Shown one piece after another: positions 5,488-11,172 of a DNA stretch of 16,660 nt. Origin of the DNA: a virus (Duplodnaviria; Heunggongvirae; Uroviricota; Caudoviricetes). The stretch lies in IMG/VR virus record IMGVR_UViG_2728369188_000006, positions 1-16,660 of that record, one strand, 5' to 3'. The number at the start of each line of letters is the position of its first letter. Position 1 is the first letter of the stretch. Below the pieces are notes generated by a model that was not told the origin of the DNA, made no database searches, and was given only the letters and a program-made list of their open reading frames with translations. Both the position numbers and the translations under genes were made by a program.

Positions 5488-5650
5488 AGCTAAAGTATTA
5501 GCTTAAAAATAAAGTATACCTAGCGAATATAATCTAGGACTAGTTGTTATGCCCGAAATGATTGATTGCGTGAGTAACAAAGTGTCTCTTCCATTGTTGT
5601 GAAATCATTTAGCCATAAAGTTTATGCAGAGATTTTATTTTATTTTTGAG

Positions 5651-5679
5651 TTGATTTTTTTGTAACGATCTGTATATTT
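5651..5679 (+). promoter_or_regulatory. Putative sigma-70 promoter for the adhesin gene (TTGATT, 16-nt spacer, TATATT)
   Basis: A -35-like TTGATT (5651-5656) and -10-like TATATT (5673-5678) preceded by TG, in a very AT-rich intergenic region about 60 nt upstream of the 5737 start. Pattern only; not validated. Confidence 0.3.
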
Positions 5680-5736
5680 CGCGCCTCTTGTCATACCAGT
5701 TATTTTTTTCATTATATTCATAACGTTGATTGAACT

Positions 5737-8700
5737 ATGACCACTGTGAATAAAAAGTTAAAAAAAACTGCATCTGGCGCGATTACATGGTCGGTAATTG
5801 TTACCCAGATATTATCTCCAGTTTCTCTTTCTTTGATCCCAGCAAACAGTTTTGCATCATCTGGTAATAAAGATGTTACGCAAACTTATGCCAGCGATGA
5901 GCATGCAAATAAAGTGGCCTCATTTGCAGCAAGTGCAGGTCAGAGCCTGGCGAATAATAATGCAAGTAGTTTTGCTGTAAATACTTTATCAACTCAGGCG
6001 ACAAAAGAGGTCGTCGACTGGTTGCAACAATATGGCAATGCGCGCATCAAGCTTAATGTCGATGATTCTTTTTCCTTGAAGGATTCATCATTCGACTTTT
6101 TATATCCATGGCTGGATACTCAGGATTATGTGTTATTCAGTCAGACATCACTACATCGTACTGATGACCGAAATCAGACCAATATTGGTTTGGGGATTCG
6201 TCATTTCACTCCTGATAACGCAATGTTGGGTGCGAATGTTTTTTATGATTACGATTTAAGTCGCAGTCACTCTCGTGCAGGTTTTGGGGTTGAGTACTGG
6301 AGGGATTATTTCAGGCTTGGTGTAAATACCTATTTTGGTCTATCTGACTGGAAGAACAGTCGGGATATTGATGATTATCTGGAAAGACCTGCAAATGGCT
6401 GGGATTTTTCTGCTGAAGGATGGCTACCTGCTTATCCGCAATTAGGGGCATCTATTCAGTTTGAAAAATATTATGGTAAAAATGTCGGGTTATTTGGAAG
6501 CGATAACCTTCAGGAAAACCCTTACGCAGTTACTGGGGGAATTTCTTATACACCAGTTCCTCTGATTAAGTTTTCTGCACAGCATAAGCAAGGACAGAGC
6601 AACGTTCACGATACAACCTTCGGTGTTGAGTTTAATTATCGCCCGGGCGTTTCCCTGGCTGAACAGCTTAGCAGCGATAATGTTGCAGTTATGCGAGAAG
6701 TCCAGAATCGGCGTTATGATTTTGTTGAACGAAATAACAACATTGTTCTGGAGTACAAGAAGAAGCATGCACTGAAAATCAGTTTGCCAGAGTCTGTTCA
6801 GGGGGAGGGGGAATCAATCATCCCTGTAACACTGACAATCAACAATGCTAGTGGTGGTATCAAGTCTGTACAGTGGAATGATAGTGCATTCACTGCGGCT
6901 GGCGGCAAGATCAGTGGAAATGGCACATCATGGCAGATCACTTTACCGGCTTATAAAAGCGAAGGTGTAAATTCGTGGAATGTTGGAGCCACAGTCCAGG
7001 ATAACAGAGGCAATGTTTCCAACTATGCCGTTATGAATATCAGCGTTAATAATAGTGGTGTCTCGACAGCGGATTCATCTTTTACGCTGGATGGGGATTC
7101 GTCTCCGACGATCTCTGCTGATGGTCAATCCACTTATCCAATAGTATTAAGCCTGAAAGACAGTAACGGTAAGGCATTAACCGGACTGGCTGATAACATT
7201 GAAATGTCTGTGGAATTTACTGCGGATAGCAATAGTGCTCGACAGCGTGAAACGGTAACTGCTCCGTCATTAGGCGCGGTAGAGGAAATCTCTGCTGGTG
7301 TATATCGCTCTGTTCTGGCTGCTGGTTCGCAGGCTGGGACGGTACGTGTAACTGCAAAAGTTCAGGGAAAAACCTTTACTCTGAATATTAAGCAGGCAGC
7401 CGTTATTGATAGTGATGTATCGACAGCGGATTCATCTTTTACGCTGGATGGGGATTCGTCTCCGACGATCTCTGCTGATGGTCAATCCACTTATCCAATA
7501 GTATTAAGCCTGAAAGACAGTAACGGTAAGGCATTAACCGGACTGGCTGATAACATTGAAATGTCTGTGGAATTTACTGCGGATAGCAATAGTGCTCGAC
7601 AGCGTGAAACGGTAACTGCTCCGTCATTAGGCGCGGTAGAGGAAATCTCTGCTGGTGTATATCGCTCTGTTCTGGCTGCTGGTTCGCAGGCTGGGACGGT
7701 ACGTGTAACTGCAAAAGTTCAGGGAAAAACATTTACCCTCAGTATTAAGCAAACAGCAGCAACAGAACCTGATTCTGAGGTCAGTGCTGTTTTAACCGCT
7801 GCACCAGCAGAACAGGTAGTTGGTTACAATATCAATCTACAACTGGCAGTGAAGGATTCACAAGGAAATGCAATCACTGGTGATAACACTCTGAGCTTTT
7901 ATGCTCTTAACCAGGCAGAAGGAGTCGAGTTTGGGACTGTAACGGAAAAAGACGGTGTCTATAGCGCGACAGTAACTTCAAAACGAGCTGGTAAGATTAC
8001 TATCGGTGTTAAATCTGATAGTCATGATTTCTCAGGTGTTAAGAAAGAAATCACCTTTATTGAGGACCGGCAGCAGGTTACATTCTCTCAGTTTGAAGCC
8101 AGCCAAAATAATGCATTGGCTGATGGAAAACAGAGAAATATGGTAACTGTAAGCCTTGCGGACCGTTTCGGCAATGTTGTTCCTGGTTATGCTGTCACAT
8201 TGTCTTTACCAGCAGGGATAACTCAAGTTGGTGGTGAACATGCTGTTTCAACTGACGAAAATGGTAATGCTATTTTTGCGTTAATAAGCTCCACTCCGGG
8301 GTCTTACGTGATTACAGCTCATGCTGGTTCTCAGATGTCTACTGAGTTAACAGTGACCTTTGCATCAAATATGACCGGAGCTTCACTGTCACTGACGCCT
8401 GAAAGCAGTAGTTTAATTTCCAATATTCCTGCTAATGGTAAGGATGCAGCGGTATTAGATGTGCAGCTGACAAATACGAATGCGTCGGTCAATGGGCAAA
8501 AGATTCAGCTCATCACCTCATCTGAAGGATTATCTGTACCAACAAATATCGTGACTGATTCAACAGGGCATGTTTCTGTTCCGCTTACAACGGTGAAAGC
8601 TGGTGAGTACACGGTGACTGCACGGGTGACTGACGGTTCCCATAGCGTGGAATCTGGCAGCGTTAAGTTAACTTTTGTGCCCGATGTTGCTTCTGCAGAA

Positions 8701-9683: not shown

Positions 9684-10725
9684 ACAGGTTAGCGTTTGGG
9701 TTTTGTTGTTGGGGAGCTGTTTTTATAGGCGCTCCCAGGTTTTTAGTAAACCACTCAACGACTCTGTTTATAATAATTGGCTGATACCATGTCTTATCGC
9801 CATGCTCGGCCCCTTCTACCAGCACGTACTCAGCGTTATCGCCGTTCTTCTTCAACATCCTGAATAGTTTGGCGCTTTGCTCAGGTGAAACCAGAGTGTC
9901 TTTGCTACCATGCATAATAAGAAATGGGGGTTTTACTCCTTTCATATGTCCGATTGGACTGGCGTTTAGCGCTTTTTCTTTTGACGCTGTGATGGGGGCT
10001 CCCGCAAAATTTCTGAATGCAGGGCCATTGATCATTAAGGCTTCGGTTACGGCAGGAGAGCGATGAACCTCCTGCACTGATTCAGGGAACCCCTCGCCAA
10101 TATTCAACAAGTCAGAAATCCCATAAAGTGTGGCAACTGCCTGAACATCTGAGGATTGCTGAAGAAAGTCACCTTTATCAAAGGTTTTGTCACCATTTGT
10201 AGTTCCCATCATCTGAGCAAGCCATCCACCGGCAGAGTCACCCAGAACTCCGATTCTTTGAGGATCAATCCCATAATTGCTGGCATGCTCTCTCAGGTAA
10301 CGTATTGCAGCTTTTCCATCCTCAACTGGTGCTGGAAATGTATCAGGAATTGTTCTGTATTCTACAGCGGCCACAACAAAACCAGCTTCTGCCAGAGCCA
10401 TTCTCATTTCAATAAATTTGTCATGTTCAGAAGACATGAATCCGCCGCCGGGATAATAAATAATGGCTGGTTTTAAATCATTTGTTCGCGGGACAAGAAC
10501 TGACATGTGAAGCTGTCTGACAGAACGAGTTCCTTTTATCTGGGAATAAACAACATCACCAATGAGATCGACTTGGTTTCTGGTCGGTGAAACACTAATG
10601 ATATCTGCACCCGGGGTGTAACCAGGAAGATTAGTCTGGACAGGTGTTGCACAACTCCCGACCGACATGGCCATTGACATACCATACAATAGTGTTGCAG
10701 ATGATAATATCTTGTTAATTTTCAT
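9682..10725 (-). CDS. Secreted, probably lipoprotein, alpha/beta-hydrolase esterase/lipase (hormone-sensitive-lipase-like family IV), 347 aa
   Basis: Contains PGGGF (HGGG-type oxyanion region), the GDSAGG nucleophile elbow, and downstream Asp (HGSKDTLV) and His (GAEHGD) candidates in canonical order. The N-terminus MKINKILSSATLLYGMSMAMSVGSC looks like a signal peptide with a lipobox-like Cys. Confidence 0.8.
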   Translation of the reverse strand: MKINKILSSATLLYGMSMAMSVGSCATPVQTNLPGYTPGADIISVSPTRNQVDLIGDVVYSQIKGTRSVRQLHMSVLVPRTNDLKPAIIYYPGGGFMSSEHDKFIEMRMALAEAGFVVAAVEYRTIPDTFPAPVEDGKAAIRYLREHASNYGIDPQRIGVLGDSAGGWLAQMMGTTNGDKTFDKGDFLQQSSDVQAVATLYGISDLLNIGEGFPESVQEVHRSPAVTEALMINGPAFRNFAGAPITASKEKALNASPIGHMKGVKPPFLIMHGSKDTLVSPEQSAKLFRMLKKNGDNAEYVLVEGAEHGDKTWYQPIIINRVVEWFTKNLGAPIKTAPQQQNPNANL

Positions 10726-11023
10726 GTTTTACATGCCTTGACTTATCGGATGAAATTCTCTTACTGAATTTAACGGCAGTTTAATAGCCGTACAACTCGT
10801 GGTAGCCAGGGAAATATCCCAGTCGTGGTTAAGGTTGTACTTGACGGCTATTATTTCAACAATGCTTAAAGTGAGAGCTTAAGGTTATGCGTATGTTTTA
10901 CAGTCCGAGTAGATTCTGACCAATAGCTTCTTTGTATAATTCTGTCAGAAATAAATCTTGGCTTGCATGAAGTTTGAGACCTTATCTTGTTTGATTATGA
11001 ATAATCAATTCGCCATAATTGTA

Positions 11024-11050
11024 TCACCGGAGCCTGAACAACTCCGGTGA
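11024..11050 (+). other. Perfect 9-bp inverted repeat hairpin (TCACCGGAG / CTCCGGTGA, 9-nt loop) in the cargo-nin intergenic region
   Basis: Seen directly in the sequence. No strong T-tract follows, so function (terminator, processing or operator site) is unknown. Confidence 0.3.
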
Positions 11051-11172
11051 CTTCTGCGCTAAACGGGGACGTTTATGCGCACACACAATCCAAACTCTCT
11101 TCTCCCTTCACAGATGCAGAAATGCACCTGCGTTTTTTTGCATCCAGCGTCTGACCTCTGTGGAGGTGAAGC

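Follow-up and report, generated by a model that had tools for sequence, protein, structure and literature searches.

An FdeC-type inverse autotransporter and an exported esterase as separable cargo genes in the P-to-ybcN slot of an Escherichia coli lambdoid prophage

Inverse autotransporters (IATs; type Ve) are outer-membrane proteins that share the PF11924 barrel, and they include intimin, invasin, IatB (SinH), IatC, YchO (IatA), YeeJ and IatD. In this family, display of the passenger at the surface depends on BAM/TAM. FdeC-type proteins form one of the four IAT subfamilies and are classed as adhesins (PMC4943183). When overexpressed, the IATs of Escherichia coli are displayed at the cell surface and promote biofilm formation (PMC6714894), and the surface display of IatB-D and FdeC has been shown by immunofluorescence or protease shaving (PMC6714894, PMC4943183). 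Phages are not mentioned in the paper on the E. coli IATs (PMC6714894). Here, we describe an FdeC-type IAT gene that is carried by a prophage, next to a convergent gene for an exported esterase. Both genes lie in a 16,660-nucleotide stretch of Caudoviricetes DNA (IMG/VR record IMGVR_UViG_2728369188_000006, positions 1 to 16,660), hereafter called the window, between the lambda-type replication gene P and the nin-region gene ybcN.

The esterase also belongs to a described group, namely the BD-FAE (former CE10) esterases, represented by FaeD, FaeT and the structures 6NKF, 6XYC, 6TKX and 6MLY. FaeD of Dickeya dadantii is a feruloyl esterase secreted by the Out system (PMC9007343). The place of the two genes can be compared with the corresponding slot of DLP12, phage 82 and the Bievrevirus phage 4A7, in which, as in the window, O and P come first and orf33-ybcN-ninE-ybcO-rusA-ylcG-Q-porin-lysis come later; in these relatives, however, ren-emrE-hypothetical-ybcK precedes the esterase, whereas the window has the IAT module there. 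Esterase genes are also carried as morons by other lambdoid prophages: the NanS-p sialate O-acetylesterases of the Shiga toxin (Stx) phages are thought to aid the use of host glycans. NanS-p proteins have a different fold family (SGNH/DUF303) and are encoded in the late region, and the likeness is one of analogy only.

We consider it likely that the IAT and the esterase are two independently acquired lysogenic-conversion genes (morons) that have been stacked in the hypervariable P-to-ybcN-ninE-rusA-Q slot, and we base this on direct observations of domain identity, of the limits of each module, and of how the genes are distributed and occur apart from each other. They are separable modules, each with its own boundaries, and the slot is found in three forms: P-IAT-esterase-ybcN, in the window and in an apparently intact prophage of the urinary tract infection strain 4/0; P-IAT-ybcN, in strain ES1; and P-ren-emrE-hypothetical-ybcK-esterase-ybcN, in strain Iso00225 and in the isolated phage 4A7. 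Homology between these arrangements switches within a shared CTTTTTA. The hairpin that lies between the two genes in the window (9657-9677) stays with the IAT gene in the IAT-only locus of ES1, and the esterase-only loci carry a different hairpin. The left edge of the cargo is at about 5478, within the final codons of P, where homology to phages without the IAT stops, and the right edge is at about 10989. The initial annotation had proposed a single island and functional module at 5488-11172. A block does exist between P and the nin genes, with a true extent of about 5478-10989, but each gene also occurs alone in equivalent prophages or phages and has separate boundaries, and the notion of one unit is not supported. 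In our reading, module 1 (about 5478-9684) would bring its own AT-rich upstream region, the IAT gene and its own terminator hairpin, and module 2 (about 9678-10989) would bring the esterase on the opposite strand. Their present neighbourhood would be due to modular phage recombination at the CTTTTTA microhomology, and not to mutual need.

The distribution of the two genes was surveyed in 5426 complete E. coli genomes, in the viral loci of IMG/VR and in 50,697 phage records. The IAT gene had a match in 561 of the complete genomes and the esterase gene in 681; in other words, the adhesin is present in about one tenth of them and the esterase in one eighth, and strains labelled O25b:H4-ST131 and ST1193 are among the carriers. 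In IMG/VR, 44 loci carry the esterase, 25 of them with the IAT gene and 18 with ren-emrE(-ybcK), and in the remaining one a truncated esterase alone stands beside P. Conversely, the 3' side could be seen in 23 IAT loci, of which 17 carry the esterase and six do not. Eight isolated lambdoid phages have the esterase, namely 4A7 and seven others, whose esterase modules are 98% identical to that of the window in protein and 99.1% in DNA, whereas this IAT was found in none of the 50,697 phage records. It should be mentioned that copies also occur on E. coli plasmids (e.g., NZ_AP026904.1, 57283-58326), the esterase in three places and the IAT gene in five; these may be prophages within plasmids or phage-plasmids.

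The IAT gene (5737-9645, plus strand) encodes a protein of 1302 amino acids, and its recognition as an inverse autotransporter in the initial annotation was confirmed. The IAT_beta domain (PF11924) was found with an E-value of 4.9e-101 and a score of 338.4 bits against a cutoff of 22.3, over profile positions 3-279 of 279, and the rest of the protein contains five stretches of Big_1 (9.5e-59) and seven of Invasin_D3 (2.1e-55). The beta-barrel spans residues 57-341, and the passenger of about 960 residues consists of about nine immunoglobulin (Ig)-like domains. Among proteins of known structure, residues 97-341 align with the whole barrels of invasin (4E1T, 1e-73) and intimin (4E1S, 8e-63), residues 342-441, the first passenger domain, align with the intimin fragment 6TQD, and the passenger also matches invasin 1CWV. 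By eye, the N-terminus has the features of a signal peptide (KKLKK, a hydrophobic stretch and PANSFA|SS near residue 40), and it aligns with the N-terminus of FdeC. No LysM, Intimin_C or other lectin domain was detected with Pfam at E <= 0.01. In a full HMMER scan, the penultimate domain resembled the repeated Ig domains of many large proteins, and a homologue search with the C-terminal fragment gave one partial match.

The closest described protein is FdeC (EaeH). The adhesin is 34% identical to FdeC of strain SMS-3-5 over 1221 amino acids, almost end to end, although identity is visibly greater in the barrel than in the passenger and the final 120 residues or so have no alignment with FdeC. 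Both proteins have an IAT barrel and a long run of Big_1 domains behind an apparent signal peptide, and both lack LysM and a C-type lectin cap. On its domain composition, the adhesin is of the FdeC type by the criteria of Heinz et al. (2016), that is, a barrel with many Big domains and with neither a lectin tip nor a co-encoded substrate. It differs from FdeC, which occupies a fixed chromosomal locus (PMC6714894), in being prophage cargo and in its strongly diverged passenger. The possibility that it is the FdeC orthologue was ruled out by the 34% identity and by its position in a prophage slot as against the fixed chromosomal fdeC site of SMS-3-5. Nor does it belong to any other named group: it scores far under the cutoff of every named-IAT model in NCBIfam, including the equivalog models for the N-terminal part of IatC (395 against 2400), intimin (338 against 1400), SinH (319 against 999) and YchO (271 against 508).

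Part of the passenger is a tandem duplication of a 357-bp unit (7044-7751, plus strand) that encodes an Ig domain of 119 amino acids (Tandem Repeats Finder: period 357, 2.0 copies, 97% match), and the two copies differ at 10 nucleotides. The adhesin occurs in sizes of 1183, 1302, 1421 and 1540 amino acids in different strains, which correspond to one to four copies of this unit, and wherever relatives with different repeat numbers were compared, the rest of the protein was at least 98% identical. All six proteins listed in Table 1 of Goh et al. (PMC6714894) have other sizes. In many genomes, megablast covered 66-67% of the gene, which had raised the possibility of a divergent N-terminus; this proved to be an artefact of the repeats, the protein being at least 98% identical throughout.

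Taken together, these features outline how the adhesin would work. It would reach the periplasm by means of a Sec signal peptide, its N-terminal barrel of 12 strands would insert into the outer membrane, and the passenger would be exported through the barrel to form a rigid stalk, whose length would be set by the one to four Ig repeats. By analogy with FdeC, YeeJ and IatB-D, adhesion or biofilm formation would be the most likely result. A different role for the barrel has been considered, in which the IAT acts as a two-partner system of the ZirT/ZirS type and secretes the neighbouring esterase. The IAT gene does adjoin a gene for an exported protein, and IATs with co-encoded substrates were described by Heinz et al. 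(PMC4943183). However, this IAT has a full passenger of its own, and the esterase gene runs in the other direction, with a terminator in between. The esterase also has a signal peptide, and viable phages and other genera possess it while lacking an IAT. We regard secretion of the esterase by the IAT as hardly credible, and reject it on the anatomy of the genes.

The esterase gene (9682-10725, minus strand) encodes an alpha/beta-hydrolase of 347 amino acids, predicted to be exported. Pfam found BD-FAE (5.7e-45, 153.9 bits against a cutoff of 26.8) and Abhydrolase_3 (1.1e-22, 81.3 bits against a cutoff of 25), and among proteins of known structure the matches were Lip_vut4 (6NKF, 1.6e-37) and the acetyl xylan esterases 6XYC and 6TKX (about 3e-21). 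In an alignment with eleven homologues, GDSAGG (Ser164), PGGGF (residues 92-96), Asp276 and His308 are invariant, and the same GDSAGG, PGGG oxyanion-type motif and Ser/Asp/His residues are found in the BD-FAE esterases. The N-terminus (MKINK...MAMSVGS-C25-A) fits a broad PROSITE-type lipobox pattern when checked by hand. The initial assignment to a family-IV-type hydrolase with a lipobox-like signal peptide thus agrees with the Pfam matches, the structures and the catalytic motifs, and in our reading the product of module 2 would be a serine esterase of the BD-FAE/hormone-sensitive-lipase (former CE10) kind that is exported and possibly held by a lipid anchor. Lipid anchoring is plausible from the N-terminal sequence, with the qualification that the lipobox cysteine is mostly not conserved.

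The homologues of the esterase are 63-80% identical to it and come, where the source organism is named, from Dickeya, Pectobacterium, Pantoea, Klebsiella, Kluyvera, Rhizobium and others. The closest ones are chromosomal, and all of the aligned ones carry N-terminal signal peptides. Those of Dickeya are 63-69% identical, and a 66%-identical protein of Dickeya aquatica is named "Ferulate esterase" by its source. The Dickeya homologue may be FaeD or FaeT, between which the gene neighbourhood of the Dickeya zeae homologue did not distinguish. Unlike these relatives, the E. coli protein is phage-borne, in a gut or extraintestinal bacterium, and it has a lipobox-like cysteine that is mostly missing from the homologues. 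By analogy with the characterised members of the family, the esterase most likely acts outside the cytoplasm and cleaves acetyl or feruloyl-type esters off carbohydrates there.

A further homologue of the esterase, 73% identical, is found at positions 5001-5897 of GenBank MK524177 ("Escherichia phage PHB10"; locus L003 in our set). Its neighbours look chromosomal (a LysR regulator, an amidohydrolase, a gluconolactonase and an aromatic alcohol reductase), and some of the record may be host DNA. A feruloyl-type substrate would agree with the nearby genes of aromatic metabolism.

The cargo stands apart in its base composition. As the initial annotation had noted, the block is AT-rich compared with its flanks: positions 5488-11040 have a G+C content of 43.2%, whereas O-P has 50.4% and the nin genes have 48.8%, and the G+C content at third codon positions (GC3) is 0.36 for the IAT gene and 0.39 for the esterase gene, against 0.58 for P and 0.61 for ybcN. 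The 249-bp spacer between P and the IAT open reading frame (ORF) has a G+C content of only 30%. The cargo block is thus compositionally foreign to its flanks. Together with its position, which is taken by ren-emrE-ybcK in related phages, and with functions unrelated to phage propagation, this agrees with the earlier view that the genes are morons. Among the usual marks of a moron, the slot has alternative contents, a deviant GC3 and a terminator hairpin, while the promoter evidence is weak.

The AT-rich upstream region of the IAT module (5478-5736, plus strand) is kept in two other aligned IAT loci and is absent from the ren-type locus. It contains two promoter-like sites, at 5651-5678 and 5688-5715, each with 9 of 12 hexamer positions matched, and both sites are kept in two other aligned IAT-bearing loci. 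The upstream region of the esterase (10726-10989, minus strand) accompanies the esterase whether its neighbour is the IAT gene or ybcK, and no consensus promoter was called in it on the minus strand. The convergent genes are separated by a 36-bp gap containing a G+C-rich hairpin (9657-9677), which has a 9-bp stem with seven G-C pairs and a free energy of -18.1 kcal/mol on the plus strand and -16.7 kcal/mol on the minus strand. A good T-run (CTTTTT) follows it on the plus strand only, so that the hairpin would chiefly terminate transcription on the IAT side. The hairpin that had been described as a terminator shared by the two genes is real, but it would chiefly serve the IAT gene. Rfam gave no match in the window at the gathering threshold.

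Several observations weigh against the reading of two independent acquisitions, or against parts of what we propose for the two products. Joint inheritance of the two genes, whose consistent absence the initial annotation had named as evidence against itself, is frequent: 438 of the 5426 complete genomes, including an O25b:H4-ST131-labelled strain, have an uninterrupted IAT-esterase junction with the same 36-bp spacer. The esterase alleles beside the IAT gene are 99-100% identical to that of the window, whereas those beside ybcK are 97-98% identical to it. Besides clonal spread, selection acting on the two genes together could lie behind the high co-occurrence and the separate allele group. 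The promoter-like sequence that had been attributed to the cargo is present and conserved, as described above, but such sites are no commoner than chance (10 found, against 12.1 +/- 3.0 in shuffled sequence). The lipobox cysteine occurs in just one of the eleven esterase homologues, the others having ordinary signal peptides. In the full HMMER scan, the last 70 residues or so of the adhesin match only a few proteins, all of the same family, and an AlphaFold2 model of its C-terminal 218 residues, made without an alignment, was unusable (predicted local distance difference test (pLDDT) score 35.5). Finally, the expression, localisation and activity proposed for both proteins are modelled on those of their relatives.

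The frequent junction and the distinct group of IAT-linked alleles are what a cooperating colonisation module would leave, in which the esterase frees a host, dietary or bacterial glycan of acetyl or feruloyl groups and thereby uncovers or generates what the adhesin binds, or alters the matrix around the adhesin, and in which adjacency is selected. The presence of the esterase in 17 of the 23 IAT loci with a visible 3' side points the same way, as do the intact state of both ORFs within a decayed prophage and the prediction that both products act at or beyond the outer membrane. On the contrary, each gene is found alone in otherwise equivalent prophages and phages, the two are convergent with separate upstream regions, more distant IATs of Citrobacter have no esterase nearby, and much of the co-occurrence may be clonal. 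We therefore think such cooperation unlikely. The same doubt attaches to its fullest form, a co-selected "prepare and bind" module of extraintestinal pathogenic E. coli in which a surface-anchored esterase would unmask the glycan ligand of the FdeC-type adhesin. If this were true, the candidate glycans would be acetylated mucin or sialic acid, feruloylated dietary fibre or bacterial exopolysaccharide, the reach of the adhesin would be tuned by the number of Ig repeats, and a temperate phage would be spreading a two-step attachment device. The distinct alleles do indicate that the pairing is old enough to have its own allele lineage, and this lineage fits either clonal spread or co-selection. 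For the two genes themselves, surface display, a role in adhesion or biofilm formation, the esterase substrate and expression from the prophage would follow those of their relatives (PMC6714894, PMC4943183, PMC9007343); what the adhesin binds and how the host might benefit can likewise be proposed only by inference.

More distant relatives of the adhesin, 67% identical in the barrel and 49% in the C-terminal part, are found in Citrobacter genomes and in two viral contigs (loci L079, L080 and L084-L086). In L079, which holds a P2/186-like prophage, the IAT gene (5977-9537) stands beside the genes for the integrase, CI and CII (CP76), which suggests that phage carriage of FdeC-type adhesins is recurrent. 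Neither the esterase nor P or ybcN was found near any of these distant relatives, and it is only in the lambdoid slot of E. coli that an IAT is paired with the esterase.

The recurrent association with temperate phages invites the question of whether the cargo serves the phage itself. In addition to the two genes discussed here, the prophage in the window carries an OmpC/NmpC-type porin gene (13235-14218, minus strand; Porin_1, 1.8e-128) between the Q antiterminator and the lysis genes, which makes the porin its third envelope-protein moron; phage 4A7 has a porin as well. The stalk, the surface esterase and the porin could then remodel the envelope and block the adsorption of competing phages, by superinfection exclusion or by masking or modifying receptors. 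All of them are envelope proteins on a temperate phage, viable phages keep the esterase, and related IATs adjoin the integrase of P2/186-like prophages. Moreover, many lambdoid morons (e.g., cor) and O-antigen-modifying genes act in exclusion. On the other side, PADLOC returned no match to a defence model, and the nearest relatives of the esterase are chromosomal proteins from plant-associated bacteria and not phage proteins. Those relatives of the IAT that have been characterised act in adhesion or biofilm formation (PMC6714894, PMC4943183). We judge a role in phage exclusion to be improbable, and retain the reading of two independently acquired lysogenic-conversion genes.

No description of this adhesin, of this esterase or of their pairing was found in the published literature, and the database names are generic: RefSeq calls the adhesin "inverse autotransporter beta domain-containing protein", and PHROGs labels the IAT families "unknown function" and the esterase family "esterase". 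This agrees with the initial annotation, which did not recognise the pairing as a described system. The two genes are unnamed additions to known kinds, i.e., FdeC-type IATs, BD-FAE esterases and phage morons, and they do not amount to a new system or mechanism. Their interest rests on their prevalence in clinically important lineages, on the repeat-length polymorphism and on the clean modular architecture. The adhesin adds to the IAT repertoire of E. coli a phage-borne member of variable length that stands outside all named groups. FdeC and SinH, to which it is related, have served as test vaccine antigens, and for this reason the adhesin may matter for surveys of adhesion, biofilm formation and vaccine antigens. 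The locus is also a clean case of modular moron exchange, with three cargo sets in one slot and joints that are visible at the base-pair level.

The setting of the cargo is a DLP12/phage-82-like lambdoid prophage, of which the window holds a decayed remnant, inserted at icd in E. coli. The span 5488-11172 is 100% identical to sequence in E. coli strain PAR and several other strains, and in PAR the lambdoid prophage lies beside icd and is followed by sitABCD. In the window, intE is frameshifted (ORFs 1-492 and 588-1127), the replication gene O is frameshifted, the lysozyme gene is truncated and J has an internal stop, and yet both cargo ORFs, 5737-9645 and 9682-10725, are intact. The stretch from xis to O is filled by an insertion sequence (IS) of the IS3 family, itself split by the transposase gene of ISEc21 (IS110 family; 2456-3532), and no immunity genes are annotated between xis and O. 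There is accordingly no pR to drive the cargo genes in this prophage.

The left backbone flank is P (4786-5487, plus strand; Phage_lambda_P, 1.6e-61), and the right one is ybcN (orf151; 11173-11628, plus strand), which is named from the RefSeq annotation of the identical locus and has a weak match to NinB. Upstream of ybcN, positions 10990-11172 (plus strand) are conserved nin-region backbone and not cargo, being 92.9% identical to positions 49-231 of phage 82 (X92588). This segment contains, at 10991-11019, the putative -35/-10 sequence of the phage 82 type (TTGATT-17-CATAAT), which was also picked up as a promoter-like site in the hexamer scan, an inverted repeat of 29 bp at 11023-11051, annotated in phage 82 as a "possible regulator-binding site", and orf33 (11071-11172). 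With this putative promoter upstream of orf33 and ybcN, the nin/rusA block would have a separate start beyond the cargo.

Towards the other end of the prophage, only fragments of the tail genes are left (14148-16660 of the window and 21815-27924 of locus L001): J has its internal stop, and the N-terminus of a tail fibre is fused to a Laminin_G_3-type domain. In strain PAR, the sitABCD iron/manganese transporter operon follows directly after these tail remnants. On the opposite side, outside the window, an AAA-family ATPase gene and an HNH endonuclease gene adjoin each other between icd and the prophage integrase (L001, 3871-6245), and these could be a gene pair of the defence type.

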